From NCBI RefSeq assembly GCF_026571515.1, contig NW_026854958.1, positions 62,001 to 126,000 on the forward strand: 64,000 bases of DNA, in the 5' to 3' direction. Numbering within the stretch: position 1 is the first letter of the stretch; each line of letters begins with the position of its first letter. Below the pieces are notes generated by a model. The model was not told the DNA's origin and made no database searches. It was given only the letters and a program-made list of their open reading frames with translations. The translations under genes and the position numbers were made by a program. Shown piece after piece: positions 1 through 63,014 of this stretch. The DNA comes from Ruditapes philippinarum (taxonomy: Eukaryota).

Positions 1-666
1 GAGAAGCTTGAGAAAGTAGGATCATATCAGTTATCTTACCGGCCACAATCCGTTGTTGCTGTATCTGAGGATGAAGTAGCGATAACAAGTGGCGGTGCAT
101 TAAAGTTAGACATTCTCCATGTTAACAAATCTAATGACATAACTTTAGATAGAACAATTAAAGTGACATCTAAATATGACTCGATATGTCAAAAAGATGA
201 TAAACATTTTGTCGGCGGGACAGTTGATCATTCAACACCTGTTCGTATTATATCATCTACAGCAGAAGAGAAAGATTTCAATATTAACTTTCCGAATAAG
301 GCATATCCTATATCGACAAGCGCTTGTACTTACACAGGCAGCAGTGATAAAGTGGTGCTTACAGATAAATACGAGCATACTGTGTACATATATGACGTCA
401 AGACAAACACGAGAGTCGTGGTGAAGGATGATCAGATCAAAGAGCCGTATGGTGTAGCAGTTGGTCCCTCTGATACTATCCTGGTTTGTAGTGAAAATAC
501 AAACTCCATTGTACAGATATCACAAACTGGACAGATCTTATCATCGTACAAGTTAGATATGAAATATCCATGTAGAATTTGTGTTTCACGTGGTAAATCA
601 TTTCTTGCAATAACAAACTCATGTAATGGTAAAAGACAACTACAGAAGTTTAAGATATCATATTGA
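1..666 (+). CDS. TRIM-like gene copy 1 (unit A): C-terminal NHL/beta-propeller portion; 5' part lies outside the window
   Basis: Open frame from base 1 (EKLEKVGSYQLSYRPQSVVAV...) to TGA 664-666; closely matches the C-termini of the 576-aa ORFs; AATAAA at 703-708. Confidence 0.9.
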   Translation, partial: EKLEKVGSYQLSYRPQSVVAVSEDEVAITSGGALKLDILHVNKSNDITLDRTIKVTSKYDSICQKDDKHFVGGTVDHSTPVRIISSTAEEKDFNINFPNKAYPISTSACTYTGSSDKVVLTDKYEHTVYIYDVKTNTRVVVKDDQIKEPYGVAVGPSDTILVCSENTNSIVQISQTGQILSSYKLDMKYPCRICVSRGKSFLAITNSCNGKRQLQKFKISY

Positions 667-1194
667 AGACGTTGATTTTTGACATTGTTTTGTTTAACAA
701 TTAATAAAGCACGATAAGTCATCAGTGAAAAATAACAATATCAAAAGTTGAGATTTTTTTTAATGTGTGCAACTTTATACTTCAAAACTAAAATGACTGT
801 CTATGTTATAAGAATTAAGAAGAAGAAATCAACGTGTTGTTACTGAAATATACATTATTAATGATCATCAATATTGCATATCAATTCAATAATGTGTATT
901 ATTCTTCTTATTTTTTTATAACATCTTATATTTTGAAATTCTTTTCCGCATTATCAGCAACCATTTTCTAGTTGCTAACATTCCTATATAATGGACAAAG
1001 ATTACATTTATCTCATCTTAAATACCATGAAATCAGATTTAATTACATACTAGATTTAAGACGTATCAGTACAACATACCTGAATTTGACAAAATATAAT
1101 GAACTTTTATATGCTAAATGAATATTTCCTTCAACATAGCATTCTGTTTTAAAATCAATATTGTATATCTTTGTAGAGTGTATAATGTATTTTA

Positions 1195-1645
1195 AATTAT
1201 GAACTATTTATTGCAAATGTAATGTATCTTTTGTATTATAAATGATGAACTTTGTATTACAAATGTAATGTATCTTTTGTATCATAAATGATGAACTTTG
1301 TATTACAAATGTAATGCATGTTTTGTATTATAAATGATGAACATTTCATTACAAATGTAATGTATCTTTTGTATTATAATTTATGAAGTTTGTATTACAA
1401 ATGTAATGTATCTTTTCTATTATAAATGATGAACTTTGTATTACAATTGTAATGCATCATTTTAATCATAAATGATGAACTTTGTATTACAAATGTAATG
1501 TATCTTTTGTATCATAAAAGATGAACTTTGTATTAAAAATGTAATGTATCTTTTGTATTATAAATGATGAACTTTGTTTTAAAAATATTATGTATCTTTT
1601 GTATTATAAATAATGAACTTTGTATAACAAATGTAATGTATCTCA
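1195..1645. repeat. 46-bp minisatellite (TATAAATGATGAACTTTGTATTACAAATGTAATGTATCTTTTGTAT), ~10 copies
   Basis: Tandem unit read directly; same array follows TRIM copies 3, 4 and 5. Confidence 0.92.
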
Positions 1646-1967
1646 ATGTTTGTATAAGTCAAAATAAAATTACTATAATGTTTGTTTTCCTTGTTTATCA
1701 TTTGATATGAAAGAAAACTTTAAATTTTAACCTCATTTAAATATTATATATTTAGATTACATTATATAAAATTTATTACCGAATTAAAAATATCCCCGTT
1801 TTGAATGAAATTCCCTTTCCTTGTTTTTCTGGGGTGCAGGTCTTTTCGTTGTGAAATTGATTTATTACTTTTACTTTTTTCTGTCGTCCTTTTTTTTACA
1901 TTTTAACCTCACCTCTGACATGTACAAAAGTTGTCAGCTCCTTGCGAAAGTACGAAAGACCGGTGGG

Positions 1968-2525: not shown

Positions 2526-2688
2526 CCAGTCTGTTCAAGCCGTGACTGTAGTGACCCCTGTAATCTTCAGATACCAGAAGATCAGCCAGTGATGATCCAT
2601 GTTTTTCTGAGATCCCAATTGCTTTCATACAACTTACGACAAATGCGTGAAACTCGTGCAGGGAAACAATTGATCCTTCTGACATCAT
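2526..2688 (-). CDS. Ldh_2-family oxidoreductase, unit A, first coding exon (rest of gene is left of the window)
   Basis: MMSEGSIVSLHEF...SEDYRGHYSHGLNRL; acceptor ttcacag at ~2700, phase-1 donor GTGAGT at 2525; 163 nt, same as unit B. Confidence 0.8.
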
Positions 2689-4973
2689 TGTGATATAACC
2701 TGTGAAATGAAACAAGTTTTATTAGAATAGAAATTAAGCACAATGTTGGCTATCCGTTTCATTTGTCCACTTTTATTTTATTTCAAATCTTTCTAAGTCC
2801 TACTTTACTTGTCTTTATATTTTAAAACTCGATATGCTTTTTTGTGTTAATGTAAATTATTAAACAAAATCTTGCTTCCAAGTAATGATAGGCAAATTCA
2901 ATATTAGGTAACATGAACATACATGTACATTGTAACACGTGCAAAATCGACATATTTTATGTCAGAAATATCGAATTTGGCTCGATAAAAATTGGATGAC
3001 AGGAATGAATTGCATAAACAATCATAGGTATTGTTGAAACTCATTGTTTTACAACTCATGTTTTAAGTAATTGGACCCAATCCTTGTTTGTACGTGACTG
3101 CTGGGGAAAAATAATGTTATGCTTAATTAAAGAGGTGACACTTTCTATATTTTTATCTGATATCGAGTTGTAAGAGCCGATTTGCAGTTATATGGGTAAG
3201 AGTTCGATAAAACTCCCTACGGTCGTCTTAATACAAACTCTTACCCATACTTAAAGAATCTGTTAGATTAGCATAAATCTAAACTATTTCATATATTTCA
3301 TAAGTAAAAATAATTATAACATACTCACCAGATTATATGGCACCTGTATTCACATGAACCGTGTAAATATAATTTAAAACTAAAATGACCCTCTTATCAG
3401 TATATCTATGTGAAAATTATATTGTTTGACACGTTTTCACTCTGAACATCGGCGGTATTTCATCTGCATCGCTTCATATCATGTATAATAATTATGATTG
3501 TGTAGAATTAATATGCTTACAACTTTGTAGATAAAATCATTCAACTCTAAAAGTGCGTTTGGCATTTTTCGCCACTTTGTTAAAAAATAAACGTTTAACA
3601 AGTAAAAATCAAACAAAATAAAAATGGAAAATCCAGAATTTTTAAAAATAAACTGTGAAGATTACATAGGAAGCAGAAGAATTCAACTGGACAGCGAAAA
3701 AATATGAGCATAATGTCACTGCAAAGCTGCGTCCCCACCTGTATTCACTTTGAAAATTGAAAGAAGCGAGAATATTAATTTAAAAGAAGTCTTTAATTTC
3801 AAGACCTACCTTGCTTCCATCGCATTTACACCATTGTACCATCTTGCATCGCCGGTACGGACGAAATAAAACAATCACGATTGTCCAAACGGAACATCGT
3901 ACAAAACACTTTCGTTATTTTTACGAAATATTCATTAAATTACAAAAATAGGATGTATTGATCAGGGGAAGTAATTGCTTCGGGGTGTTTACAAAACGCC
4001 TAGCTTAAGTCACTTCTTCTAGTCAGTTTAGAAGTTATGAATGTGTCAATATTACATGGGTTTTTTAACGGAACGCGCGCTCACTTTGACAAGATGAAAC
4101 GCAGTGTTTTATAGCAAATAAGTGTACAAGCAATCCATGGTATATCAGAAACGTTTTTTTATCAGAACAATTGAGTATGTAGTTATTTCTTATAACCGGT
4201 GTCACACTCGTTCATCAAAACAAGCGATTTCTGCAAATCTTCTGTTCCCTTTCTCACGGTTGTTTAGCAATACCGTGGTTTTTATGGTTAAAATATTATA
4301 GATTTACATTTTTCTTATCGCACTAATGCATTGCTGATTTGAATTACAATGATAAAGTTCGGGCGAAATGGATACGGTTCACCCCTTTTTCAAATGTATT
4401 AATTATATGAAATATTTTGTTTCAATGTGTATCTAATAATTTCTTTTCTTACTTGTTCGTGGAAGTTACCTTTACGCAAATATTAGACTATTTTTTATTC
4501 CGTATATTGTTGTTTCTGATATTGTTATGTATGTATGACTAGATGAAAGACACCTTTTTATTCGAGTCCATTATTATGAATGAGTAAGATTTCTTTCAAA
4601 CGTTCAATGTAGTAATTTGAAATTTGAATCTACTGGCATTTCCGGAAAGTGTAGGGTTGCTATAGAGAAATACATGGAGACTATCAAGTTTTGTAGTTGT
4701 GTACAACGGACAACAAAGAAGAAGTAAATTGTGGGTTTAATTTGACCACAATGATATAAATGGATAGGAGAAAAATACATATACTTAATAACACAAATAG
4801 TGTGCTTAAGAAAGCTGCAATTAGTTCGATCACGGATTTTTATAACAAATATGTTATATAAATCATATGCATGTGTAAATTATCAGAATTATATGCCTTT
4901 AGCAAAAACACAAAGTAAAAATGTTTTGACAGTGTGTCAATTTGACAGTGATCACAAAATTGCGTCCAGCCTT

Positions 4974-7900
4974 CTACAACGTTTTAATTGGTTCAATTTG
5001 TAATGACGCAGCTATATCATTCTGAAATAAAATAAAAATATTCTATTTAACATCGAGTGTATATATTGTATGTCGAGTTAATTTTAATATTTATTTGTAC
5101 ATCCATTATTCTGTATAAATTATTCCATTACCAAAGGTTCTAAAGATCGAGAGGTATGGTTGTTATATCCTTTTAGGTTCATTAAATATGTAGACGGTCA
5201 AGGACAAAAGCACAATTTCGAAAAAGTAAAATCGTATAAAGAAAGGTTCATAATTTGTGCATTACTATGCACGATACCTAGAAACCTTTAAAGCTGCACG
5301 CCAAGATGAGCTAAAATATTTCAAGAAATTCTTTAGAAAAATGTATTTAGATCTTTAAAGAAGTTAAAATATTCAATATTTAATTAATCATTTACATATT
5401 ATATGCGATTAATTACTGTATTTTTCAGTATAAATCACTATAATTCTACTGCGTAACTAATGCAGTGAGAGGTATTTATGTATAATTTGACCTCTTTTTT
5501 GTTATTAACGTAGATTGTAAGTGCCGTTTGCAATGTGTAAATTACTTTCTTTGTTCACCTCACAATATTTTACTTTTAAAAACATTTTCGAAATTTTCAT
5601 GAAAATAAGCATGAATCTGGAGGCATGCTGCTTTAAAAGTGTTTGTTAATGCTAGAATATGCATGTTGTTTTGAAATGTTGGCAGACGACAATATCGGGG
5701 CGTGAGTGCCGCAGAACGTATTGCTTCGCATGCACATGTGTACTAAATTTTCATTCAATGAAAGTATATCTGTTTACAAAATGATAGTTTCTTTGAAAAT
5801 CAGCCGGATTTCTGCTGTACTATCTAAAAAATATAATTAAAAAATCAGCACTTAAATCGGTATATTATATACAAAAGTCAACGTTGTTTTGGATAAACTC
5901 TCGGAAGTCAAAACTACTTGTTAATTAATTAATTAAGAAAAATAACAAGCTTAAATGACAAATGAGATCAAATCATCGATATATATATTTACAGGGTAGA
6001 CTTTAAAAAACTTACGGCATTTTTAATTTGGTTTGGATGGTACCAGATTCCACCTTGATTGTCACATTTTTCCATGTGTACTCTCTCCGGATCACCGGCT
6101 ACCCACACTTCAGGTTGACCATCTGCCTATTTGAAATATGTTTTTATTGATAATATTCGACTAACATATTAATTTTGACCAGTTATATATTATCTATATT
6201 GACTAATATCAAATGTTAAATTGCTGCAACGAGATTTGTTTACTATTAATTGCGCAAGAAATGAATACATACTGATTTACAGTTATATGAACTAAACTGC
6301 TTATATGCAAAGTTTTACGCTTACAAAATGGAACCATGCTTGATGAACGGGCATTCCCTCTAATTCAATCTATCAGCACCTAAAATAGTTTAACACGATG
6401 TTATTAATCCATTCACTGTTTAGGATTTTTCTAAACCACTCAGTAGCTCATTCATAAGTCAACGGACTGAAAGACAGACATGGATAGCAAAATCCCAAGT
6501 ATATTACATCCAACGAAGGGTAATAAATGTTTTCGACATCCAATGTATAGACTTACTGGTTCAAGATTCCTACAATGTTGCATGAGATCACTTAGTCTGT
6601 CTGCAAACCCAGGCGCAAACGCTTCCGGGTCTACTGCAACAAAGCACTGGCCCTGAAACGAGAGTATGATTTTTGTATCAACACAGCTATAGAAGACAGT
6701 TTGTGATTTGATGAGTCAAAAAGGGTCCGTACTCTCAGTGTCTGAAAGGCTGGACCGGCCCTCATTAAGCATAGAATACATACACAGTAATGTCAAAACC
6801 GAAATAACGCTGGCTTATTTCAATGGAATGCTGATTTCGATGGAATAACTAAGAATTTGACAATGGAAGGCTATTTAATGCAGGTTGAAATTCGTAGTAC
6901 ATTTGTTTCACTTTTATAATTACATGTATCTTTAAAATAAAATACCGGTATAACAAAAAAGCCAAAGTTAATGAATACTATTATTTTAACTTGATTCGAG
7001 CGATGTTTACAGTTGAAATTTGCTACATGCTGTCACTTTAGAATAATCGGATATTAAGTAATGCTTACTATTTATTTTATAATTTCAATTACTTTCTTTA
7101 AGACCTAAATAACGCAGAGATCGGATAAGGTTTGTGTACCAAGTTTGTTTGTCTATGAGATTCCTTCCATTTCCGGACATGGTGAGCGTAATTGGCACCA
7201 CTGAGTATTCCACAGAAAATATCTACCATCATTGACAATCCATAGCCCTTGTACCCGGCTTAAAACAAATTACAAACACATTATTCTTTGCACTGACTTA
7301 GTTGATAAAGAATTCAAAAACGGAGAAATAAAGATTAATTCATAAATTTGATAAATGACATATCATTCATATTGCAAGTCCATCATAGTGAAAGAAGCTT
7401 CAACGGATACAACCTAATTGTCCATAGTACGGAATATTTATCGTAGGTTTAGATAATTTTAGTATGGTCGGAAAATATAAACCGGGGGGTTAAAACCCCA
7501 CCCATGCCGGGAAATTCCAAACTTTTAATAATCTCGGGAAAGGATTATTTAGAAAAAAAACGAAAAAAAATTTCTAAACAAAAAAAATATCAAAATTTTC
7601 AATTTAAAAAATTTTTTAAAGAATTTTTCAAAATTTAATAATTAAAACCCCCGGAAAAAAAATACTCAAATTTGGGAACCCCGTGGAAAATTTTCCCCTT
7701 TGTTCTTTTTGAGAAGGGGCCCAAAAATTTTTTAACAATCGATTATATTGTTTTTATGTTAAATTCAAACTAAAACGCACTTTTAACGCCTTCAAATAAA
7801 GAAGAAATTATGGAGGGAGCATTCATTAATAAATTTAAAACGTGGGGGAAAATGGGGTTTAATCGAAAAATTGGGAAAAGGAGGAAAAAATTAAAGGGAC

Positions 7901-10900
7901 AAAAAGAGAAAAACGGAAAATTTTTGAGAGTAAGAAAACAAATAATAAAATTGAAAATTTTAGCATTTATATAAAAATGATAAACAAACATTTTTCCCTT
8001 AGATTGGGGGCCTTTGACCCAAGAGGACTTAAACTTTGCTTGTTTGGGATCAGTAGTTTTTGTTTAAAAGCCTTTAAATTCCAACCCGCCGACCAGCCGA
8101 AAAAAATGGGTTTGGCCCAGAAAGGGGGCGCCCCTTTATCTAAAAATTTTAAAGGTTGGAATTTTGAAAATTTTTTGGGAAAAGGTTTTCTCATTTTTTT
8201 TTCAAATTAAATATTTTTAAAACCTCATAGGATTTGGCCCTTTCATAGTATTTTTAAATTTTTGTGGGTGAGGATTTCAAAACTATATTAAAAAATACAT
8301 TTTGTGTTTTAAATTTATAAAAGGGATCACGTGGGTTGCCAAAAAAAAAATTAGAAAAGGGAAAAGGGTTTGGTTTAAAAAGTTTGTCTATACATTGTCA
8401 TTTAATGCAAAAAATTTGGGGTAACAATTTTAAAAACGGCTGGAACAATTTTGAACAAAAAATCATAAAATTTGGTTTTATGATTTTTTTTTGTGATTTG
8501 TTTTTCCTGACTTTTAAAAAGTCCTTTAGCTTTAAAGGGTTATAAATAAAATGTTACTATAAAATTTTTTTTTTTCCCCAATTTTTTTTTTCCGGGAAAA
8601 AAAAAGAAAAAAAACCCCAAAATTAAAAACCCTAAAAAAAATTTAACCTTTTCCCTAAACGCCAAATGCCAAAAAAGGTTAAGCCATATCTTTTTACGAA
8701 ACTGTTTGCCCTCTTGGGCTGGTGCCGGCAACAATATTGGTTGGTACCCCAGCAATTTTTCCCGTTTGGGGTCTTGTGGGAAAACCAAAAAAAGGGAGTA
8801 TTTATAAATACCAAAACCCTACATGATAGAAATAATATCCTTTTAGATTAACAGTGATAAAAAATGCTAATGATTCAGACTGGTAATATCTGTGGTGATC
8901 TATTGCGCAGAAAAAAAGTTATATGAAAATATAAGAGCAAGAGTATGACCTATTTTAGAAGAGTATTTGAAATAACTTATTAGTAATATCTAAAAAGAAA
9001 AAAAAACATACATTACCAAATATACATTGAGTGGTTTATATCATTTATTTATTTGAATATATCAGTATTAAAGTTGGAATATACTGGAATCCAAGATACA
9101 AATGATTTAATAGTTTGATTGTTTTTGTTTAATTCTGATAGAAATAATGTTAAAAGAATCTTCATTCAGGACATATGCATTTATTTCAATGCTTCGAACT
9201 TAACTTACAATCATTCCGTGCTTTAATGCATGCAGACCATACCAGCCGGCGATTCCAAAATGATTTGAACCTATTCAAAATAAGTTACATTATGCTTTTC
9301 ATTTTCTCAGTATTAGCTTATATTGGTGTTTCTGTTTTATTCATTATTTCATTTAAAAAAAGCATCAAATAAATGAAAAAGTACAAGTTTATAATTATTT
9401 TTGATATCAATGATAATATATGTATTATTGTATTCAAGGATAAATGGAAAGAAGCATTGCCACGAATTTGTCTACATAAAATATTGAAACATATATAAAT
9501 TGATCTAATTATCCAAGAGGACATAACAAGTACAAAGTCTGCTGCCAAACAAAATTTGTCACTTCATATCAAAGATGAAGATGAACTAACATTGAATGTT
9601 CTATTTTTGTATTCAAACATTTAAATTTCTATCATTACAATAAACTCTGAAGTTTACAATACAATACTATATGAAATTAAGGAAATTTTTTAAGAGGAAG
9701 ATATTTATTCTTAATTTACATTATCCATTCATTGTTATTGGTTTCAAGTCACGTGCGTAAGGATATACCTCGTGCCGACACCCAGCCAATGCCAGCGTCT
9801 TTTGCTTTCTTTATGGCAAGGTCCATGCAGAACCGGCCAATCACAGGTCCTGTAACAAATTTGAAAAATATGTTAATCTCGAAAACTTGCAATTTATAGT
9901 GTACGACATGGCTGTATGGAATATACATGTATGTAATGAAAATTTAGAGTACGCTTTTTTTCTGCTTAACGGTTCCCTTAAAAAAAGTCTACGTCTCATG
10001 ATAACTACGCGTAATAGTATATTTCAGAACACAATATGGTAAAAAAAATCTGCCACGTATACATATGAAAATAGCATACATAAACATACATGTAATTCAT
10101 AATTATGCTACAAATAAAAAAACGTTCAATGTATGATAAAAAAACATTTGATATTTACCTAGGATATTATTGCCTTCTACCAGCGCTGTTGCTATGGTTT
10201 CCTTGACAATTTCTGGGTTTCCTGTTGCCACGGTTGTCTTCGTTTTCACGTCAGTTATATACATGTCTAAAATGAATAAATTAATGAATGAATGAGTGAG
10301 TGAGTAAATGTGTCAATGAATGAATGAATGAATAAACGAATGAATGAATGAGTCGGATGGTCTTTATGACCAAAACAGAATGTAATGTTTCTACGAATCT
10401 AAGTTACTTGTACATATTTGATGCCAAATAACAAATTCAAGGCAAACATTTGGTGCCAAATAACAAGTTTCTAGATCTATAAATTAATTATCATTGAATA
10501 TCGTTACAGAGAACACCTTTAAATAAGTGTACATTTCAATGTTGTTAATTTCGTAATGTTATATGAAAAACCAACCTTTATTATATACACTTTAAATATA
10601 TTGATTATTCTTATCTTTTAAACTAGACATATACTATTCTATCCTGGCCTGGCACAAAACAGCATTTCATAGCACGTACTTCTATCTTGATAATTTCTAG
10701 AATTTCTCTAACAGAAATTGACCGTAAATTTTTTTTCCGTCACAATCTTAGTTTCAATGTTCCCTAGCGCTTTATAGTGATAGGAATTTACAAGAAACGC
10801 GGATTGATAAAAATTTCTTGGCCCGATGAATTTCAGGTAGTCAGAGAACCCAATTAATGGTTACGATCCTGTAGATAAAATCAGGTTCATCCTCGTAGCG

Positions 10901-13900
10901 GGACAAAAGATATCTTGAAATGTCAAGCCTGGTTCGTTTCTGGTCGTCACTCAACTGTCTTGGGACCCGTCTAGCGTAAACCTTTGACATGCCATAGACA
11001 TCAGTCAGAATTGCCTGAACTGAACCAAAGCTTATACCCACTTCCCTAGCAATACTTCGCAGGTCTCGCCGTCTGTCCCACATGACCAGACCGTACACAG
11101 CTTCAGCAGTTTCATCGTTGGTTGCCTCTTTTAAATGCCCAGGCTGCTCATTATCTCCAATGCTCTCCCTGCCCCTCTTTAATTCAGCTACCCATTTTGT
11201 ACAGTGCTATAGGAAGGGAACTCCTTCCCAAGTGTATCCATGAAGTCTTTATTGATTTCCCTGGGGGACATCCCTTTGGTCTAAATGACACACCCCTCTA
11301 CTGATGAAAGTGTGTTTTATGTTACTTAATCTGTGTATAACCGCGTGTAACTCGGTCACTTATCTTCAATAAGATATCGGTATCGACGTATCGCGTGAAA
11401 CTGTCAGTGTAGTGGCTAGAAGTTTATCGGGCACAGAACTTTTTGATCATACCTCGTAGACTGATCCGTAGTGTCAAAATCTAGTCTTGGACATAAAATT
11501 AATTAAATAAATCCAAATCAAATAGTTATGCATTTATCAAGTAAAAATTTATTCAAACAACAATAATCATAAGCAAAGAAGCTCTATCCTTCCATATTGT
11601 CATGTACAACTACTACTAATCATAGTATTTGTTTTTAAAGGCATATTCGGTATATATTGTGACATATTAATTATGTCCAAGGCTTGCGTAATTAGAAGAA
11701 TCTTACATTCGGCACAGTCTTGAATTTTATCATTTAATTAAAATCGTTAAATAAATTCAACATGTAAGATCATCTATATATCTTAATATAGATAATGATT
11801 GCATATATCCAATAATCATTGTCACACAACCAACAGATACAGTATGAATCTATCTGTGGCATTCTTCCTAGTTGATATTTGTGTTATCTCGTAATTCATA
11901 CTAAAAAGTGACAAACGATAGTACCAGTGGTAACCAGTTACAATATATTACGCAGAGGTATATAGACATTGCATTTGATTGGAATAAATTTATAATAAAA
12001 TGGCTCTAAACAACGCGGGAAATGGTGAAGTGTCCGGGCGAGTTAAGGAAATTCTGTGTTAACCATGTTTGAATGACGATAAACAAACACCAGCGGAAAG
12101 TTTTGTCCAACTTGTAATGAATTTCAGTGTTTGGATTGTTCCAACGTTCACAATACTCACGTCTTCTTAAAAAGTCACAAGTTAGTGAACGCGAATGAGG
12201 CGAAAATAAAACAAGGGTCGTTTTATATGAAAGGATTAGACAAATGTGATCAACATCAGAAAGTTTTAGAATTTTTCTGCGAAGATGATAATCAGCTCTG
12301 CTGCAGTACATGTGCCATTCTTAATCATCGTAAATGCCACAGTATTGTGGAAATTCTGAAGGTCGCTGAAAGGTCAACGAATAGAAGTTCAACTTTAAAG
12401 GTTAAAATGGAGGAAGTGAGAAAGAAGGCTAACATAATCGTGGACAGCATTGTCTCATCAAAAGAGAAACTAGATGAAGATGCTAAAGAAATACCAGTCA
12501 AAATACGTCGAAAGCGGGATGAAGTAATGAAAATGTTTGACGAGTTGGAAGTTTCCGTTCTTAAAGACTTTCAATCGTTTCGGAATGAGACATTAGACAA
12601 GCTGACAATAAACCAGTCTCGGAACGAAACATATCTAGCTGATATAACAGCATGTCTTGAAACGATTGACGAAGTGCATCAGAACGGATCTCTGGTACAA
12701 CAATTTATAGTAGAGCAGAAGATGCAGAATGACGTCAATGTTCTTCACACAAATGTCGATGCAGAATGTCATGTTTTAGAGACCGTGACTGTAAGCTTTG
12801 ATTTTGATGAAACATTAAAACCTTCTCCTCTGTCAGTCTTTGATTATGTACCAGGACAACTGACTCTAAATGTCTGTCTGTCAGAAGTAGCCAGGAATAT
12901 AGTTCCTTTTAACAAAGCAATGGTACTTACACCAGTAAAGTCCATTGATTTAAAGCAGGAAGAGGATGATATAAATGAGCCATTGTATTCAGGGATTGAT
13001 TTTTTCCCTAATGGAAGACTTGTTGCTGTTGATAATAGAAATAAACAGGTTTTAGTCTACAATGAGAAACTTGAGAAAGTAGGATCATATCAGTTATTTT
13101 ACATGCCATAGTCCGGTGTTGCTGTATCTGAGGATAAAGTAGCGATAACAAGTGCTATATAGTGCTTTAAAGTTAGACATTCGCGATGTTAAAAAATCTA
13201 ATGACATAACTATAGATAGAACAATTACAGTGACAACACAGTATGACTCGATATGTCAAAAAGATGAAAAGCATTTTGTCAGCGGGATAATTAATCATTC
13301 AAGACATGTTCGTATTATATCATCTACAGGAGAAGAGATAGATTTCAATATAAGCTTTCCGACTAAGTCATATCCTATAGATACAAGCGCTTGTAATTAC
13401 ATAAGGAGCAGTGATAAAGTGGTGCTTACAGATAGCTACGAGCATACTGTCTACATATAAGGTGACTTATAGGTGCAATGGTCCGTGTGTTTTTGTATGT
13501 ATTCTTGAAATGTATGTGAAATGATAAATGCACAATGTCACTATAATAAACAATTTACTTACTTNNNNNNNNNNNNNNNNNNNNNNNNNNNNNNNNNNNN
13601 NNNNNNNNNNNNNNNNNNNNNNNNNNNNNNNNNNNNNNNNNNNNNNNNNNNNNNNNNNNNNNNNNNNNNNNNNNNNNNNNNNNNNNNNNNNNNNNNNNNN
13701 NNNNNNNNCGTCAAGATAAATGAAAGAGTCGTTGTGAAGGATGATCAGCTAAACATGCTGAGGGAGCCGTATGGTGTAGCAGTTGGTCCCCTGTGATACT
13801 TTCCTGGTTTGTAGTTTGAGAACAAACTCCATTTTACAGATATCACAAACTGGACAGATCTTATCATCGTACAAGATAGATGTGGAATATCCAAGCACAA

Positions 13901-14127
13901 TTTGTGTCTCACGTGATAAATTTATTTTATTTTTTGCTTATATATAAACTTATACAAAACTCACCCAGTCTGTTCAAGCCGTGACTGTAGTGGCCCCTGT
14001 AATCTGCAGATACCAGAAGATCAGCCAGGGATGATCCATGTTCTTCTGAGATCCTAACTGCTTTCATACACCTGACGACAAACGCGTGAAACTCATGCAG
14101 GGGTACAATTGAGCCTTGTGATGCCAT
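4974..14127 (-). CDS. Ldh_2/YjmC-like (malate/L-lactate dehydrogenase type 2 family) oxidoreductase, unit B; 10 coding exons, ~355 aa; best candidate functional copy
   Basis: Exons 14127-13965, 10266-10159, 9849-9769, 9270-9209, ~8817-8650 and ~8149-8000 (both garbled), 7258-7140, 6652-6557, 6126-6016, 5021-4974. The 8 readable exons have GT-AG sites, consistent phases and no stops. Motifs DYRGHYSHG, SNHFGIAG, GYKGYGL, VAGDPE are read here; TNTSP and GTNP are read in paralog exons. Confidence 0.8.
5288..5636. mobile_element. TTAA-flanked MITE (non-autonomous DNA transposon)
   Basis: TTAAAGCTGCACGCC... and ...TCTGGAGGCATGCTGCTTTAA are inverted repeats; second copy at 32072-32410. Confidence 0.65.
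10270..10352. repeat. (TGAA/TGAG)n microsatellite next to the host exon-2 acceptor
   Basis: Read directly; present at the same position in units C, D and E. Confidence 0.9.
10855..11458 (-). mobile_element. Truncated Tc1/mariner element (5' TIR plus degenerate N-terminal transposase)
   Basis: IAREVGISFGSVQAILTDVYGMSKVYARRVPRQLS resembles the mariner HTH/WVPR-L region; end TA-CGAGGTATGATCAAAAAGTTC on the minus strand at 11458; absent at the homologous site in unit E (~50110-50130). Confidence 0.85.
12000..13922 (+). pseudogene. TRIM-like copy 2 (unit B), pseudogene
   Basis: ATG at 12000, TAA at codon 21 (12060-12062), frameshifts, TAG at 13109-13111, insertion with AATAAA/(ACTT)n tail at ~13459-13708 (partly N), 3' end deleted at ~13922. 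Confidence 0.92.
13565..13708. other. Assembly gap (N run)
   Basis: N bases. Confidence 1.
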
Positions 14128-15600
14128 TGTGAAATAAACTATGGAATAAAAAAGAAGTTAAATTTGAATAGAAATTAAGCACATACACTGTCGGCTATCT
14201 GTTTTATTTGTCCATTTTATATTATTATAGATCTTCTATCTGTTTTGACGTAAATTATTAACAAAATCTTGTTTCCAAGTTACGTCACGAAAATGCAATA
14301 TAAGGAAACATGTGCATACACTATAACACATGCAAAAATCGACATATTTCATGTCAGAAATATCGAAATAAGCGTGAAAAAGCTGATTTCATTGGATTAT
14401 TTCGATCTTAATAAGGAAATAGTTTTAATTCTTCAGTGCTCCATATGCACAGTAATTGCCCGATTAAGTATTAAAAGATATTATAAAATGAAGAAAAATA
14501 AGGAAATAGATAATATATGAATTAACTATAGTCGAAACAAATTTGAAACTATCGATACATAAAACAAATGCAACAACATAAGTGACATTGTTTTATAATC
14601 ATAAAGGTTTTACTCAGTTATCCGCGTGACCAAAATATTCAGAAATATTCACGTGTCAATAAGGTGACATATATGTAGTGTCACATCTTTATTAATGAAA
14701 GTGCGTATCGCATTTTGTAGCGTAAAATTACTACATTAGCTTATTGTTGAAATGCACAAGAATACATTAAGTATATGGCCAATACTTTCATTTCACACCT
14801 TATAAAATGTAATCAAATCTCCCAATACAAATGATTATTAGATCAAATCTTCTCAAATTAGCAGCATTTTCGTTTTGCCAGTCCAAAAAAAAAAACCCAT
14901 ATCAAATCGATATTGCACTCTATCAAATATGAAAAACAAGATCAACAAGGAAAGGCGGCGTTCAATGAACGCAACCCCCATATGAACCAGCAACAAGAAC
15001 CAATGGCATGGAGCCCAGGCGGACCCCAAACATAAAAAGGACAGGGCAACGACACGTTAATCATTAAATGATAAATAATTTGTAACTGATAAGGAATTCA
15101 AAGAAAATAATAATAGGCCCACAAAGGGGAAGGAGACCGGGGGAAGGGGGGGGGTAATCAAAGAAATAAAAACTAGAGGCAATGGGGAAGATACTTACCG
15201 TAGACGAGAAAACAACAAGGGACACAAGCAAAAGTGTCACCAAAACAGTATGAAACAACATAGACATACATCTGAGGAACACAGTGGGGCGCCGCCTTGG
15301 AACGGTCAGCAGCATAATAATGACTGCTGGGGAGTTTAAACCGGTTAATGGTGCACCAAACCTCGCTCTTAGCCCCACCATGTTCCTATAAACGAGACAG
15401 TGTAAATAAAATGAATCCCCGCCAAGTGAAATTCTAACAGTTGTCATGGTTACAAAAGGTTAAAGAAGTAAAACACTAAAATGATCATGTAGAAACATAT
15501 AAAAGTAAACCCAATGACCATAACAAAAGTACTCAATGTCCTAAAGGAAGACAGAGCAACAAGAAAATCACCTACAAGGGCCCGACGAAGCAAGGCAGAA

Positions 15601-25382: not shown

Positions 25383-25387
25383 CTAAA

Positions 25388-46200: not shown

Positions 46201-47974
46201 TAGATGAAAGAATCTTTTTTGCTGGATAGTTTAATTATAAACGAGTCAAAAAAATCATTTTGAATGTTCAATATAAAAATAATATGAACGTTGATTAATA
46301 AACTAGCATTTCCTGAAAGAACTGGGTCGCTATAGAGAAATAGATGGAGTTTGATGTTGTCGACTTTCAAGTTTTGTAGTAATGTACTACACACAACAAT
46401 AAAAAAGTAATAGGTAGGAATTAATAAAATATCAAAAATGAAATCAATAAGTTGGGCGTAGATTGATTAACATATTCGTAGCTGCTAATTGATTCTATAG
46501 GTATGCTTAGGATGTTACCATATTCGAATATGCTTTAACAATCAAGAAATCAATTATAAGAAAAGGGAGTAAGCACATAAAAATAAAACGCTTGCTTGGG
46601 TATATCAACGGAAAGCCATTTTATAGAGAATTATTCTATTGTTGTGTCAGTCTCGAATCCGAGAAATCAGTGTTTTAAGGAGGTATGGTTTGAATTATCT
46701 TTAAAATTTCAGTTTATATCACCTAATGCGAAAGATGAGACACTTTAAAACACTGAAAACAAAATATTCAACAGAAACACGGAGTGACGTATACAATGTA
46801 AAACTATGGTATAAACAATTTCTTTGGAATTTTCTCTTTTTTTCAGATTGAGTTAAGCTTTAAAGAATCAATGTTATAATGCTAATAAACCTCGTCAAAA
46901 TCAAAATAATATTAAGAATTTGTCCAATATATTACAATAATATTTTTTAATAAGAATCAGATCTTTGCTAGCATCTATCTCAACTTCTGTTTATTTGACT
47001 ATAAAAATGAATACATATATTTACAAAAAATATCACTACAGAAAGATGTTTCTACTGCATTATTTAATAAGTTGCATACTTCTGCAAGCAATGACATATA
47101 TATATTCTTTATTATGCATAGTCTCATTTATGCATATTTAAAACATAGACAGATATACAACTTAAACAATGTACACGTATAGCCATATAAGACATGTCAT
47201 GTACGTTCCAAATCTTTTTATATCACCAACTTTAGATAACGAGTTGGCGAGCATCCTTTTATGTGCGTGAGGAATTTATCTTCCTGATGAAATATCTTAA
47301 ATATTTCGAATGCAAACTGAAAGAGTCGAGTTGAGAATAAAAACTGTTAAAGACAATATTTATTGTCTTCAACATTGACATTATACGCACTTAAAAATAT
47401 TTTAAGGGGCCGAATGATCGTGCGATACTACATCTAAGCTGATTAATACGATAACATTTCGTTAAACTAAAACATTTAAGCTGTTGTGTTTGTATTAAAG
47501 TCAAACAGATCATTTTAAAGCATATTTTCCTTGATTGTATCTCATGTAAAGTTATGATGAAACGAAAGAACAATAACAAAGAAAAAACTTGTTAAACATT
47601 TTTTAAATTATTACAATAGAGAGACACCTGGCTATGTTTTGTTTTTCTAATAGTAAATAACTTTTGAACTTTTTAAAACAGTGTCAAAATTAGACTTTGT
47701 GCAATTTCTCTTACATTCAATACATGTACTTGATGTCATTTTCTAACTATATATAAAGACAATTAGTAATTGCAAAATTACATGGCATCAATTTGCTTCC
47801 GTACTTTATGTGTTCAACTTAAATCATTCCGTGCATTAATGCACACAGACCATACCATCCAGCAATTCCAAAATGATTTGAACCTGTTAAATAAAAGATT
47901 AAATAAGTTTGTCTGTTTTTCATATTTTTAGTATTAGCTGACATTGGGGTCACTGTTCCTTTTTATTATTTCAA

Positions 47975-48336
47975 TTAAAGGCACATTTTGCCTAAAAAAA
48001 TGTTTTCTTCTTCCGAAAATGGAAATATTAATTTTATAATGTTAAAATAATAGTTAACGACATGTTATATGCTTATCGCCTGAATGATATAGCGATAATT
48101 GTGAAATAATTTGTCATAAATATAGCAAAATGTAAATAAAGTAATAATTTGACCTTCATACAAAATATTAAATCTCTAAATCTCTATATCTACTAATTGC
48201 CAAAACGATACAGAAGGGCAAGATGGTTTAGGTAACTGGCCAATGATTAACTTTTTGGAAACTACAACAGGAAACCAAAATCACGGCTTTTGGGAAATTA
48301 AAGTAAAAGCATTTCTAGGGCATAATGGGCCTTTAA
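47975..48336. mobile_element. TTAA-target MITE (Kolobok- or piggyBac-like)
   Basis: TTAAAGGCACATTTTGCCTA / TAGGGCATAATGGGCCTTTAA; the empty site in unit C (~24425) has a single TTAA; related ends at ~29315, ~31100 and ~49350. Confidence 0.75.
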
Positions 48337-49655
48337 AAAGGCACATGTGAAATAGGAAAGAACTGGTCAATCCTGGTCAAGGTTAATAGTGAAATTATTT
48401 TGATCTCTGTGATAATATTATAACTACTGTAATTTCATTAACTAAATAAGATAGACGGCTAAAAAATCAAAGGAGCTTTGTGACAAAAACGGTTACATAT
48501 AAAATATTGAAACAGAAATAAATAGAATAAACTATCAAGGAGGACATTTACATAACATGTAAAAGTAGCGGCTATTTTATAAAATGACAACAGGGCAATA
48601 AAGAATAGGATGATTTTAGTAAGAAATTGTCACTTCATGTTAAAGATAATCTCACTATATGTGCTCCATGTTTGTATCAAATATTTAAATTTACATTTAA
48701 ATTTACTATACACAACTATATGAAAATTAAAAGGAAATATTTAAAAAGGGGATATTTATTCTTAATATATATTAGCCTTTCATTATTATTGGTTTCACTT
48801 GCGTTAGGATATACCTCGTGCCGACACCCAACCAATACCGGCTTCTTTTGCTTTCTTTATGGCAAAGTCCATGCAAAAGCGACCAATCACAGGTCCTGTT
48901 ACAAATATGAAAACCTGATAAGATGATAGTGTATAACATGTGTAAGTAAGATAATTATGAAATGAACATTTAGAGTACTTTTTTTCTGCGTACGGTTCCT
49001 TTATTGGCAGATGCCTCAGAACGAAAAATTTGTTTCCTTCTGTGGAAGGGCAAATATGTGTTTTTCAATGTTGAAATAATGTATGTAGAACATATTAAAT
49101 GCCTATCACCAGAGAAGCTAACATTGTATGTGAAACAATTTGTCATAAAGGTAGCTAAATATAAATAAAGTCGTATTTTGACTTCCATACAAAATAATAA
49201 ATCACTATATAACTGTATATACTCATCGCTAAAACACAAAAGAAGCGAAAGTTGTCTCAGATATATTGCTAGTGACTAAACTTTTGTAACTGGACGCCAA
49301 ATAAGAAATGAAAAATAAAACTGACAATATGTTTAGGCTTATTGGGCCTTAAAAAAGTCGGCGTCTACAGATCAAGTATTTCAAAACACAATATGCTATA
49401 AAAGCTGACATTTTTACATATGAAAAAGTATACATGCATGTAATTCGTATGCTACGTTCCATATTTCATACCAAAAACGATCAGTCCATTATAAAAACAA
49501 CAGGAAATTTATATAGTTTATTGTTGCCTCCTACCAGCGCTGTTGCTATGGTTTCCTGAAGTCAGGATTTCTGGATTTCCTGTTGCCACGGTTGTCTTCG
49601 TTTTCACGTCAGAAATATACATGTCTAAAATAATTGAATGAATCAGTGGGTGAGT

Positions 49656-51091: not shown

Positions 51092-52822
51092 ATGGCTGAA
51101 AACAATGCGGGTAATGGTGAAGTTTCGGGGCGAGTAATGGAAATTTTGTGTCAACCATGTTTGAATAACATTTTACAAAGAACAGCGGACAAGTTTTGTC
51201 CAACTTGTAACGAATTTCAGTGCTTGGATTGTTCCAACGTTCACTACACTCACGCCTTCTTAAAAAGTCACAAGTTAGTGAATGCGAATGAGGTGAAAAC
51301 GAAACAAGGTTCGTTTGATATGAAAGGATTAGATCAATGTGATCAACATCAGGAAGTTCTAAAATTCTTCTGTGAAGATGAGAATCAGCTCTGCTGCAGT
51401 ACCTGTGCCATTCTTAATCATCGTAAATGTCACAGAATTGTGGAAATTCTGAAGGTCGCCAGAAGGTCAACAAAAACAAAGTCAACTTTAAAGGTTACAG
51501 TGGAGGAAGTGAGACAGAAGGCTTACAAAATCGTAGACATCATTGTCTCATCAAAAGAGAAACTAGATGAAGATGCTAAAGAAATACCAGTAAAAATACG
51601 GCAAATGCGGGATAAAGTAATGAAAATGTTTAACGACTTGGAAGTTTCCATTGTTAAGGACGTTCAATCGTTTCGGGAAGAGACATTAGAAAAGATGTCA
51701 ATAAAGCAGTCTCAGAACGAAAAATATCTAGGTGATATAACAGCATATCTGGAAACGATTGACGACGTGTATCAGAACGGATCTCTAGTACAACAGTTCA
51801 TAGTAGAGCAAAAGATGAAGAATGACGTCAATGTTCTTCACACAAATGTCGATGCACAGTGTCATGATTTAGAGACCGTGACTATAAGCTTTGATTTTGA
51901 TGAAACATTAAAACTTCCTCCTCTGTCAGTAACTGATTATATACCAGGACAGCTGACTCTAAAATTCTGTCTATCAGAGGTAGCCAGTACTATAGTTCCT
52001 GTTAACAAAGCAATGATACTTACACCAATAAAGTCCATTGATTTGAAGAAGAAAGAGGATGATGTAGAAGAGCCATTTTATGGAGGGATTGAGTTTTTAC
52101 CTGATGGTAGACTTGTTGCTGTTGATAATAACAACAAGAAATTCTTAGTTTACAATGAGAAGCTTGAGAAAGTAGGATCATATCAGTTATCTTACCGGCC
52201 ACAATCCGTTGTTGCTGTATGTGATGAGGAAGTAGCGGTCACAAGTGTCATTCCTTTAAAGTTAAACATTCTCCATGTTAACAAATCTAATGACATAAAA
52301 TTAGATAGAACAATTAAAGTGACAACAAAATATGTCTCAATATGTCAAAAAGATGATAAACATTTTGTCGGCGGGACAATTGATCATTCAACACCTGTTC
52401 GTATTATATCATCTACAGGAGAAGAGAAAGATTTCAATATTAACTTTCCGAATAAGTCATATCCTGTAGACACAAGCGCTTGTACTTATATAAGGAGCAG
52501 TGATAAAGTGGTGCTGACCGATAGATACGAGCATATTGTCTACATATATGACGTCAAGACAAACACGAGAGTCGTGGTGAAGGATGATCAGATAAATGAG
52601 CCGCGTGGTGTAGCAGTTGGTCCCTCTGATACTATCCTGGTTTGTAGTAAAGGAACAAAGTCCATTGTACAGATATCACAAACTGGACAGATCTTATCAT
52701 CGTACAACGTAGATATGGACTATCCAAGAACAATTTGTGTCTCACGTGATAAATCATTTCTTGCAATAACAAACTCATGTACTGGTGAGATAAAACTACA
52801 GAAGTTTAAAATATCATTTTGA
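51092..52822 (+). CDS. TRIM-like copy 5 (unit E), 576 aa, intact
   Basis: Uninterrupted ORF with the same architecture as copy 4; AATAAA at 52859. Confidence 0.93.
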   Translation: MAENNAGNGEVSGRVMEILCQPCLNNILQRTADKFCPTCNEFQCLDCSNVHYTHAFLKSHKLVNANEVKTKQGSFDMKGLDQCDQHQEVLKFFCEDENQLCCSTCAILNHRKCHRIVEILKVARRSTKTKSTLKVTVEEVRQKAYKIVDIIVSSKEKLDEDAKEIPVKIRQMRDKVMKMFNDLEVSIVKDVQSFREETLEKMSIKQSQNEKYLGDITAYLETIDDVYQNGSLVQQFIVEQKMKNDVNVLHTNVDAQCHDLETVTISFDFDETLKLPPLSVTDYIPGQLTLKFCLSEVASTIVPVNKAMILTPIKSIDLKKKEDDVEEPFYGGIEFLPDGRLVAVDNNNKKFLVYNEKLEKVGSYQLSYRPQSVVAVCDEEVAVTSVIPLKLNILHVNKSNDIKLDRTIKVTTKYVSICQKDDKHFVGGTIDHSTPVRIISSTGEEKDFNINFPNKSYPVDTSACTYIRSSDKVVLTDRYEHIVYIYDVKTNTRVVVKDDQINEPRGVAVGPSDTILVCSKGTKSIVQISQTGQILSSYNVDMDYPRTICVSRDKSFLAITNSCTGEIKLQKFKISF

Positions 52823-53374: not shown

Positions 53375-54078
53375 TATGATGAATAATGAACTTTGTATGA
53401 AAAATGTTATGTGTCTTTTGTATGTATCTTTTGTCTTATAAATGATGAAATTTTTATTCCAACTTTAATGTATCTTTTGTATTATAAATGATGAACTTTG
53501 TATTACAAATGTACTGCATCTTTTGCATTATAAATGATGAACTTTTTATTACAAATGTAATATATCTTTTGTATTATAAATGATGACCTTTGTATTACAA
53601 ATGTAATATATCTTTTGTATTATAAATGATGAACTTTGTATTACAAATGTAATATATCTTTTGTATTATAAATGATGAAATTTGTATTACAAATGTAATG
53701 TATCTTTTGTATTATAAATGATGAATTTTGTATTACAAATGTAATGTATATTTTGTATTATAAATGATGAACTTTGTATTACAAATGTAATGTATCTTTT
53801 GTGTTATAAATGATGAACTTTGTATTACAAATATGATGCATCTTTTGTTTTATAAATGATGATGAAATTTGTATTACAAATGTAATGTATCTTTTGTATT
53901 ATAAATGATGCACTTTGTATTACAAATGTAATGTATATTTTGTATTATAAATGATGAACTTTGTACTACAAATGTAATGCATCTTTTGTATTATAAATGA
54001 TGAACTTTGTTTTACAATTGTAATGTATCTTTTGTATTATAAATGATGAACTTAGTATTACAAATATAATGTATCTCA
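53375..54078. repeat. 46-bp minisatellite, ~15 copies
   Basis: Read directly. Confidence 0.93.
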
Positions 54079-54269
54079 ATGTTAGTATTAGTCAAAATAA
54101 ATTTACTATTATGTTTATTTTCCTTGTTTATATTTCGATTTATACGTTAATTAGACCCACCATTGATACCAATACAATTTATTTACTTTTTACAGTCATT
54201 CACAATGTACCTCACCTCTGGCATGTACAAAAGATATCAGCTCCTTGCGAAAGTAACGAAAGGACCAGT

Positions 54270-54656
54270 AGGGGCATTTCAACTTGAAATTCCCGATTTC
54301 ATCTTCATAAATAATTTCCCGAATTCTAATTCACGAAGTCACGATTTTAACTTCATGAATTCCCGATTTCAACTTCTCGAATACACCTTCATGAATTCAT
54401 GATTTCAACTTCATGAATTCATGATTTAAAGTTCATGAATTCACGATTTAAACTTTACGAATTCACAATTTCAAAATTCAGCTTCTAGAATTCACGATAA
54501 CAGCAGTTTACTTCGTGAAGTTGAAATCTTGAATTCGTGAAGTTGAAATAGTGAATTCACGAAGGTGAATTGGAGAATTTGAAATCAAAGGTGAATTCGA
54601 GAAGTTTAAATCGTGTATTCATGACGTTGAAATCGTGAATTCGTGAAGTTAAAATC
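54270..54656. repeat. Foldback-like tandem/inverted repeat abutting the exon-1 donor
   Basis: Same motif as 1968-2347. Confidence 0.7.
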
Positions 54657-57254
54657 AAGAATCACCCAGTCTGTTCAAGCCGTGACTGTAGTGGCCCCTG
54701 TATTCTGCAGATACCAGAAGATCAGCCAGGGATGATCCATATTCTTCTGAGATCCCAACTGCTTTCATACACTTCACAACAAACGCGTGAAACTCGTGCA
54801 GGGAACAATTGATCCTTCTGACGTCATTGTGATATAAACTGAGGAATGAAACAAAGTTAAATTTGAATTGATTGAAATTAAGGGCAAACACTGAAGATCA
54901 TTCTTTTCATCTTTCATCTTTCATTTTATTTTAAATATTGCTATGCTCTTCTTAATTTACTGTTGCTTTTATTTTATTTTAACATAGTTACTATATTGTG
55001 TATTTGTTTTGACGTACTGTCATTGCCTGAACTTATAAAAAATAATCTTGTATCCAAGTTACGTCACGCAAACACAATATAAGGTAACATGTGCATACAC
55101 TATAACACGTGCCAGGTCGACATATTTCGTGTAAGAAATATCGAAATTGGCGTGAAAAAGCTGATTCATAGTTTTAATTCTCCAGTGCACTATGTACGCA
55201 GTAATGTGCCTGATTAAGTTTTAAAAACCCGTGCAAAATAATAAAATAAAGAAAAATAAGAAAATAGATCTTATAATTGAATTAACTATAGTCGAAACAA
55301 ATGTATAACTATGGATGCATAAAAACAAAAGCAACGTGACATTGTTTTATAATCATATAACCACGTCACAAAAATGTTCAGAAATATTCACGTGTCAATT
55401 GGGTGACAAATGTAGTCTCATCTTTATTGATAAAAGTGTGTTTCGCATTTTGTAGCGTTAAATTACTACGTTAGCTTATTATTGAAATGCACAAGAATAC
55501 ATTGAGAATATGGCCGATACTTTCATTTCACACCTTATAAAATGAAATCCAATCTCCCAATACAAATAATTATTAGATAAAATCTTCTCAAATTAGCATT
55601 TCTTCGTTTTGCCAGTCCAAAACAACCCATATCAAATCGATATTGCACTCTATCAAGCTTTTTTTTTCCGAGTCCAAAAAATCCATTTCAAATTTCTATT
55701 GTATTCCATTTAGCCTCGTTTTCATTTTCAGAGTCCACAAAAATCATATCAATTCCTTATTGTACTCAAATTATCAAAGTTCTCCCAAAGTATTAAAAAG
55801 TTGATGGTTGATGGTATATATGTCCTTCATTATGTACATGGTTAAGTACAATGCTGAATCTGTAGTACTCGTACAAAGCTGCAAAACCTATATAAGACTC
55901 CGCTCATCCAATATAGGATTGACAGCCAACAGAATTCAGTATTGTACTCAACAATGAATAATATCAACAGTCAAAACAACTCTTAAAGATCAACATTTAA
56001 ACGTTATGATATTTAGCTATTAAAACGCTGCTATTAATTAAATAATATGTTAACTAAGCATTAATTTAAACTTTAAACTATTTAATATTTTTCATAAGAA
56101 GTAAATTAATTAAAAATTAAATAAGTAGTAAATTATTATAACAGTTTTATATGTGTATGGCATCTGTATTCACATGAACCGTTTAAATATAGCTTAAAAC
56201 TAAAATGACCCTCTTATCAGTATATCAATGTGAAAATTATATTGTTAGACACGTTTTCGCTTTGAACACCGGGGGTGTTTCATCTGCATCGCTTTATATC
56301 ATGTATAATATGATTGTGTAGAACTATTAATATATCTACAACTTTGTAGATAAAATTCTTAGAGGGCGTGTGGCAAAAGCATTTATTTTTTTACATTGTT
56401 AGATAATATACGGTTAACATTCATGAACAGTTTCTTGTAAAACAACAACACTCACAACCACAACAACAACGAACAAAATCAACAACAACAACAACAAATA
56501 AAACAACAACAACAACAAAAACCAACAACAACTAAAACCGGAAAACCCAGATTTATAAAAAAAATGTGAATATTAGATCAACATAGGAAACAGAGGAATG
56601 GTTGAAATCTATAAAGTTTTTTAAATTAGGTTGTTGTTTTTGTTGTTGTTTTTCCCCCAATAGTTTCACAATGATAGATCTACCCGTACTGTATTTGTGC
56701 TCTGTTCTTATACTTCAGTTATGGAAAAGATTAATGCTGTGAACTGTTCCAGATTATGTTAGTCTTAATATTGGTGTCAGTATCATGAAACGTATCAAAA
56801 TTCATAATTTTGGCTAATTATTGCTCCGTAGAAATTGCATGTAGGTAAATTATCATCACTTTGTGAATTATATTATGCCATTGATGACTGATATTTAACA
56901 CCACATTTCTAGTGCGTGACTAACGCTGTAAGAGCTATATATTTTGTATATTTTGAACATTTTTGTAATTTACGTGTATTTTATAATTGCCGCTTTACGT
57001 ACATTTTAATTTTTTTATGAAAATTAACATGAATCTGGCAAGTTGCTTTAATTAATCTGACAGATAAAAGCCTACAGTAGGGAGTTTGTGGGCTTTCGTC
57101 TAATAAAAGCCTGGCTACAGAATGCTAATAATGAAGCACAATAAAACAAAACCGTGTTGCATACTATATTATGTTGACAGTAGATTATGACAATTTAATT
57201 GAAAAGGTATTCGTTAAATATTTAGACAAGATGGCGGTGAGTAAAAACGCGATC

Positions 57255-62982: not shown

Positions 62983-63014
<32 letters not shown>

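Follow-up and report, generated by a model that had tools for sequence, protein, structure and literature searches.

We analysed a stretch of 64,000 nucleotides (the window) from the clam Ruditapes philippinarum, in which a TRIM-like gene lies antisense inside an intron of a gene for an Ldh_2/YjmC-like oxidoreductase (the host) and the whole nested pair is repeated in tandem. Self-BLAST, the self-comparison that an earlier note on this DNA had proposed, confirmed the five-unit repeat described there: five colinear direct repeats (units A to E) lie head-to-tail from position 1 to ~56.6 kb, with periods of ~13.3, 14.2, 13.7 and 10.9 kb and unit lengths of 11-14 kb. Positions 1-56,600 are covered by another unit over 75% of their length, positions 56,601-64,000 over 0%. 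The aligned blocks between units are 78-95% identical, i.e. 5-22% divergent, and the synonymous divergence (dS) between the TRIM genes of the array is 0.10-0.17. The units are tandem paralogues that have diverged beyond the allelic level.

Each unit combines a plus-strand B-box/NHL gene with a single coding exon (the TRIM) and minus-strand exons of the 10-exon host. The TRIM lies antisense within coding intron 1 of the host, and the same intron, the same strand and shared flanks are found in all five units, which supports the previous proposal that one TRIM insertion preceded the amplification. As had also been noted before, the TRIM is located wholly between host coding exons 1 and 2 in units B, D and E, with GT-AG ends and an in-frame junction; unit A shows only host exon 1, and unit C only the exon 2 side of the TRIM. 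The junction of unit B (13965|GT...AG|10266) is in frame at the level of the sequence and yields RLDMY, as in the database proteins. Between exon 1 and exon 2, units B, D and E harbour one run of N each (144, 145 and 227 bp), two of the three falling in a (TCAT)n tract that runs unbroken over 189 bp in C. The exon 2-TRIM adjacency is free of N in B and C, and the TRIM-exon 1 adjacency in A, D and E.

In Pfam scans of the TRIMs of units D and E, B-box 2 (PF00643) was matched with 38.6 and 33.8 bits, respectively (cut-off 24.1), and B-box 1 (PF22586) with 18.7 and 16.8 bits, which is below the cut-off of 27, the Cys/His pattern being nearly invariant. The NHL repeat (PF01436) reached 22.9 bits in TRIM E (cut-off 20) and 18.1 in TRIM D. 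The same scan of these two proteins gave no match to a RING family (E 0.05; the B-box motif begins at residue 20) and none to a filamin domain. Residues ~121-300, which follow the B-boxes, look helical by eye. The propeller was predicted to be six-bladed with 24 strands, at a mean predicted local distance difference test score (pLDDT) of 92.3 for the model built with an alignment and of only 52.9 for a single-sequence fold. Its best fold matches were the NHL domain of Brat (1q7f, template-modelling score 0.74), LIN41 (6fq3) and TRIM2 (7b2r), at 14-17% identity, and the protein language-model neighbours of the TRIM are mollusc B-box and NHL clusters. By its predicted architecture, the inner gene is a TRIM-NHL-type adaptor that lacks the RING of a canonical TRIM. 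It resembles Brat, LIN41/TRIM71 and TRIM2 in its B-box motifs and modelled six-bladed propeller, but differs from them in having neither RING nor filamin domain, in the low identity and in a hypervariable upper face, and it belongs to a mollusc expansion of B-box and NHL proteins. The closest named proteins of both TRIM and host are labelled Ruditapes philippinarum.

The five TRIM copies, all on the plus strand, differ in their state. TRIM D (40233..41963), with two B-box motifs, a helical middle and the six-bladed NHL-type propeller, and TRIM E (51092..52822) are intact and keep 576-codon open reading frames at a dS of 0.17. TRIM C (26488..28216) is of full length, but its reading frame is interrupted at ~27644, where a run of A is one letter too long; this may be a sequencing error or a recent lesion. 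Of TRIM A, the window contains the 3′ part encoding the propeller (1..666), which is open over the 221 codons seen; the 5′ part lies outside. TRIM B (12000..13921) is a pseudogene with stops, -1, +4 and +1 frameshifts and a 246-bp insertion, and its 3′ end as well as ~550 bp of upstream DNA are deleted. Four of the five TRIM 3′ ends listed earlier were recovered as stop codons (666, 28216, 41963 and 52822), but the one placed at ~13.9k was not, since TRIM B has no stop and its homology ends at 13921. The decay of TRIM B, and that of hosts C to E described below, go beyond the earlier note.

PF02615 matches in model order were obtained for seven of the eight host exon translations scanned (exon 9 gave none), two of which exceeded the whole-protein cut-off alone, and the full-length database host P0121 carries PF02615. 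In Mercenaria, the orthologue of the host is XP_045169151, with which it shares 91-92% identity, and the nearest solved chains are 1v9n (E 6e-69) and the L-sulfolactate dehydrogenase 2x06. A spliced host protein of ~355 aa had been assembled before, but no single unit of the window gives such a protein. The exon lengths add up to 355 codons plus a stop only with exons 5-6 borrowed from paralogues: C, D and E are broken, B is open in 8 of 10 exons and A lies mostly outside the window.

Host B, like all host copies on the minus strand, is open with GT-AG ends in exons 10 (5021-4974), 9 (6126-6016), 8 (6652-6557) and 7 (7258-7140), which together span 4974..7258, and in exons 4 (9270-9209), 3 (9849-9769) and 2 (10266-10159), spanning 9209..10266. 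Its exons 5 and 6 fall in a garbled low-quality stretch (7393..8830). Coding exon 1 (13965..14127) is open and carries G25R at an invariant position. The 5′ region of host B (18529..20148) contains a candidate non-coding exon at ~18529-18620 and, at ~19060-19075, the MRWKQ-leader exon of isoform P0151. Coding exon 1 of host A (2526..2688) is also open, with R19S and A41E at positions that are invariant in 14 molluscan relatives, and the database model starting with this exon ends at 138 aa and has 4 of 52 invariant positions changed. From these changes host A looks degenerate. Its 5′ region (3329..4830) holds a candidate non-coding exon that would end at the GT at 3328, and a homologue of the upstream exon at ~3810-3825. 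In unit A, the 3′ end of host exon 1, together with its GT donor, occurs once more at 2337-2402, ~125 bp into intron 1, and this duplicate could serve as an alternative donor.

Hosts C, D and E are pseudogenes, with at least five disabling lesions each in a coding region of ~60% of the length of that of the TRIM. Host C (exons 2-9, 21002..25382) lacks exons 1 and 10, has lost the exon 3 acceptor, and carries a stop in exon 5 and a +1 shift in exon 7; its promoter is lost with the first exon. Host D (exons 2-10, 31743..39186) shows a +2 shift in exon 3, a -2 shift in exon 5, two stops in exon 7 and the loss of the exon 3 and exon 6 donors; its coding exon 1 (43291..43468) has a 15-nt in-frame insertion, and its 5′ region lies at 44814..46410. 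In host E, exons 2-4 (47822..49624) have a +4 shift in exon 2 and no exon 2 and exon 4 donors, exons 5-10 are absent and coding exon 1 (54666..54827) contains a -1 frameshift. Invariant host positions are altered at 11 of 110 sites in C, 8 of 129 in D, 2 of 92 in B and 0 of 112 in the off-window protein P0157.

For each copy, we compared the private changes with a mutation spectrum derived from 1,204 non-coding columns with 242 changes, giving a ratio (omega*) for which the counts are small and to which gene conversion may contribute. The TRIMs of units C, D and E gave omega* of 0.33 (p 0.005), 0.52 (p 0.02) and 0.56 (p 0.04), respectively, and the pseudogene TRIM B 0.81 (p 0.35). For the hosts, omega* was 0.29 (p 0.01) in B, 0.31 (p 0.009) in C, 0.48 (p 0.12) in D and 0.44 (p 0.10) in E, and 0.9, from seven changes, in A.

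Within the TRIM, changes are concentrated on one side of the propeller. Sites with at least five residues among 12 close TRIMs numbered 14 of 276 in the propeller versus 4 of 300 elsewhere. Twelve of these 14 lie in the d-a and b-c loops (76 positions), which by standard propeller geometry form one face, and none in the 53 loop positions of the opposite face (Fisher p 0.0014); the remaining two are located at strand-a starts, a class defined after the data were seen. In addition, omega* was 1.1-1.2 in the upper-face loops versus 0.50 elsewhere (p 0.014), and 0.93 elsewhere in TRIM B. The open TRIMs combine a constrained scaffold with one variable face. The upper propeller surface of LIN41 binds RNA (PMC5908797; here and below, cited papers are represented by their accessible parts), and in these little-studied mollusc B-box/NHL proteins the upper face is a candidate diversifying recognition surface in a farmed clam.

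The array continues beyond the left edge of the window, as judged from database proteins, which were used in place of off-window DNA. Another intact TRIM (P0002) is apparently encoded on the same contig as the window TRIMs, as are models of two different full-length host proteins, including P0121, which matches no window copy. Furthermore, the database isoforms P0151, P0155 and P0157 carry exons 1-4 of unit B and exons 7-10 from a copy outside the window; P0155 differs from unit B at 0 of 135 residues in exons 1-4 and at 7 of 123 in exons 7-10. The best-preserved host exons (those of P0157) lie left of the window. At least one more unit is present on that side, and probably two.

On the right, homology to other units ends at 56,599 with the truncated 5′ region of host E (56021..56599, minus strand), ~0.5 kb before a reverse-transcriptase fragment of a decayed retroelement (57171..57563, plus strand; RVT_1, 50.4 bits). 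Unit E is devoid of ~1.1 kb of the host 5′ region, including the MRWKQ-leader exon, that is present in A, B and D. Because this shared region is missing and homology stops near the reverse-transcriptase fragment, the edge, previously taken as an array boundary, is a truncation of unit E; it is probably, though not certainly, the end of the array as well. The last 7.4 kb of the window showed no match to the unit apart from two short repeats.

The garbled stretch in host B (7393-8830) has 20-23% of its bases in runs of five or more, versus 1.5-2.7% in the paralogues. With ~1.3 kb of homopolymer-ridden letters it looks like unpolished long-read sequence, and DNA depth falls over it. Four read runs were mapped on 2300-18900 at 80% likeness, with an output dominated by transposon reads and 40 of 1,971 variant rows listed; no assembled read contig from this mapping spans the whole stretch. 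Contigs of run X1 differ from B-specific stretches at 3 of 499 and 4 of 433 letters, and X1 may be the source sample. RNA contigs of run X17 cover host-exon and TRIM bins, the copy not being assignable at this likeness. Database models join host exons 1 and 2 across the TRIM. Run X24, recorded as RNA-Seq, was rejected as evidence of expression: it is unstranded, its depth tracks the DNA runs and its loose ends start at GATC, and we read it as a Hi-C-like library. At position 6081 in exon 9 of host B, all four mapped runs have T and the window C, which may be a private allele or an assembly error.

With regard to the history of the array, TRIMs B to E form one clade with P0002 and with P0001 and P0004 from other contigs (Shimodaira-Hasegawa-like approximate likelihood ratio test, SH-aLRT, 99). 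This clade is nested in a 25-row clade without a named Mercenaria protein (SH-aLRT 100), in which the partial TRIM A is unplaced. P0001 (on a 13-kb contig) and P0004 (on a 624-kb contig) could be units not yet placed in the array or copies that have moved out of it. Among the 120 TRIM matches listed, 50 are from Mercenaria, of which 29 are on one 88-Mb chromosome, 13 on short unplaced contigs and none on the apparent chromosome of the host orthologue XP_045169151. The host orthologue cluster has ten members, one of them from Mercenaria, where the gene appears to be single-copy. On this comparison, both insertion and amplification look specific to the Ruditapes line. The Mercenaria TRIM P0104 and the YjmC paralogue P0205 are on one 64-Mb contig; their accessions are not suggestive of adjacency, and we took this as chance. 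A by-eye check of the flank alignments, with no formal test, showed neither a poly(A) tail nor a target duplication.

Taken together, we consider it fairly probable that a B-box/NHL gene inserted recently into a host intron, that the pair was copied in tandem and that the array has since undergone birth and death, with the TRIM as the more likely beneficiary. A single-coding-exon, RING-less B-box/coiled-coil/NHL copy from a large clam family would have landed antisense in coding intron 1 of an Ldh_2/YjmC-like gene then present as a single copy, probably once the lineage had separated from that of Mercenaria. Unequal crossing-over may then have copied a block of 13-15 kb with the whole nested pair at least six times, the copies themselves being visible in the DNA and the database proteins. 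Since then the array would have evolved by birth and death. Most TRIM copies remain open, presumably as ligand-recognition adaptors and probably in immunity, whereas the extra enzyme copies would have been constrained for a while or homogenised before most of them decayed, and one or two host copies (perhaps B and others beyond the left edge) would have been kept. An immune-type recognition role is suggested by analogy; for instance, oyster TRIM transcripts track Perkinsus tolerance (PMC9892467). The host would be largely a passenger, but not from the start and not in every unit.

Several observations weigh against this reading. The view of the host as a passenger, already put forward in the earlier note, fits its present state, with three of five copies plainly disabled and a fourth degenerate, but a pure passenger is contradicted by omega* values of ~0.3-0.5 (0.29-0.48 in B to E), by the two full-length host models and by unit B. 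TRIM A, with omega* of 0.68 (p 0.42), is indistinguishable from neutral. Positive selection was not detected on the upper face, where omega* did not differ from 1 (p 0.58-0.88), and the neutral spectrum included a block later recognised as host 5′ region. In this transposon-swamped mapping, 15 of 1,124 joints were listed; none of these is exon-exon, and the 13965-10266 joint does not occur among them. Moreover, at position 10217 in exon 2 the X17 RNA contigs have a non-B letter (39.4/39.4 depth) where the DNA run X5 has the B letter only; this hints weakly that the main expressed host in the X17 library is not B, the putative keeper of the enzyme. The TRIM tree was built by a quick method on 40 rows, with SH-aLRT and no bootstrap, and the absence of a nested TRIM in Mercenaria was judged from annotated proteins, a word-limited search and contig assignment.

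A bolder version, which we regard as possible though doubtful, is that the pair is being un-nested: each unit would keep one partner (the host in B, the TRIM in A, C, D and E), antisense interference being the supposed cost of carrying both, and freed copies may seed other loci (P0001, P0004), while enzyme mRNA may even splice across units. The deletions in TRIM B remove upstream DNA and the 3′ end, and in host C the promoter and exon 1 are gone. The state of the partners is reciprocal in that the host is open only in B, where the TRIM is dead. This complementary pattern is suggestive, but with five units it is expected by chance in 1 of 5 to 2 of 5 cases, the latter if TRIM C is counted as dead.

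In a rival reading, a duplication-prone block would simply have amplified neutrally and decayed at random, the TRIM surviving oftener only for having no splice sites. The dead TRIM B, the frameshift in TRIM C, the upper-face omega* of ~1 and the chance level of that coincidence are in line with such a process. However, three TRIMs have significantly fewer amino-acid changes than neutral, change is limited to one face in the open copies and not in B, and the hosts carry coding frameshifts and stops besides their splice losses. We therefore hold neutral amplification to be rather unlikely, and prefer birth and death with the TRIM as beneficiary.

We assign a low probability to a cross-unit host transcript with several TRIMs in its introns, for which B would supply exons 1-4 and a copy beyond the left edge of the window exons 5-10 (isoforms XP_060585798-800). 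The match of P0155 to B at 135/135 residues in exons 1-4 and its differences thereafter are as such a transcript would predict, and none of the ten cluster members models exons 7-10 of B. On the other hand, the garbled exons 5-6 of B would push spliced alignments to the next copy and create such a model, and the non-B letter of the X17 RNA lies in exon 2, within the part supposedly taken from B. Most simply, the isoforms joining B with another copy would be annotation chimeras caused by the garbled stretch, so that database isoforms of a clam enzyme may be cross-paralogue products of an assembly flaw.

About equally improbable is that the nesting is old and shared by venerids, was lost or missed in Mercenaria, and that the amplification alone is recent. 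The Mercenaria comparison was made with annotated proteins, and related TRIMs at ~64% identity exist in that genus; the position of the array TRIMs deep in a clade of Ruditapes proteins on other contigs, at 74-79% identity, however, fits the young insertion that we favour. Least likely of all is an assembly artefact of mis-stacked haplotypes or of lesions that are sequencing errors: one 1.3-kb stretch is clearly unpolished, three N runs are present, the frameshift of TRIM C lies in a lengthened homopolymer and the letter at 6081 is contradicted by all four runs, but the units are 5-22% divergent with unit-specific insertions and whole-exon deletions, most lesions are not homopolymer changes and X1 contigs agree closely with stretches specific to B.

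Insertion commonly gives rise to antisense nested genes (PMC3814207). In Drosophila, ~71% of nested genes are antisense, most arise through a duplicate inserted in an intron, and nested genes evolve faster than their hosts (PMC3814207, PMC13343718); the latter study is limited to single-copy genes, whereas the clam case is a tandem array of whole pairs. The LRRTM/alpha-catenin pairs (PMC3933685, whose Table 1 includes TRIM32 nested in ASTN2) resemble the array in one antisense intron insertion, duplication of the pair and, in some copies, the later disappearance of either partner. They differ in stemming from vertebrate genome doublings and in being ancient and dispersed, while the clam array is young and head-to-tail, with decay legible per unit. 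The antisense nested omp in capn5 (PMC13378369) was likewise co-duplicated, and in some lineages the nested copy became a pseudogene in an intact host, comparable to unit B; there, however, two copies from the teleost genome doubling kept their hosts, and the clam hosts are mostly lost. The bivalve tandem expansions of C1q and TNF (PMC8905726, PMC6835236) are comparable in that recognition-type genes are gained and lost in tandem within single lineages, but the duplicated unit of the clam also includes, around the inner gene, an entire 10-exon metabolic host. As far as we searched, Ldh_2 (PF02615) 'YjmC-like' oxidoreductases are multiplied in tandem only in this clam. The literature searched, which did not extend to most subscription papers or to supplements, yielded no paper on this locus and none on tandem copies of an entire nested pair. 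What is new here is a young tandem array of a whole nested pair with divergent fates of the partners, a modest variant of known co-duplication that changes no general principle, and the genes are already in the public annotation as uncharacterised models. The array provides a natural series of five dated copies in which the different fates of host and inner gene after tandem amplification can be read, and allows a test of whether nesting resolves by complementary loss.

Several repeats and mobile elements are found in and beside the units. A 46-bp minisatellite follows the TRIM at the 3′ side in A (1186..1643, 10 copies), C (28767-28946, 3.9 copies), D (42504-42777, 6 copies) and E (53422-54076, 14.2 copies), and is absent from B; in A, D and E, a 22-bp satellite adjoins the donor of exon 1. 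At 61850-62380 (minus strand), GC-richer open stretches with splice-like ends are possibly exons of a flanking gene, the candidates at 61.8-62.4 kb giving no Pfam match. Upstream of coding exon 1, unit B alone has a high-copy insertion (14926..17618, minus strand) with a reverse-transcriptase-like open reading frame at 16235-16972, which has no Pfam match and which we take to be Penelope-like. A short piece sharing an end with this insertion lies upstream of TRIM E near 50.6 kb. A second high-copy insertion specific to unit B, in intron 1 at 10736-11588, is presumably a mariner-like transposase remnant. Finally, intron 9 of host B harbours a short, very high-copy element at ~5510-5640, where the DNA contig depth exceeds 20,000.

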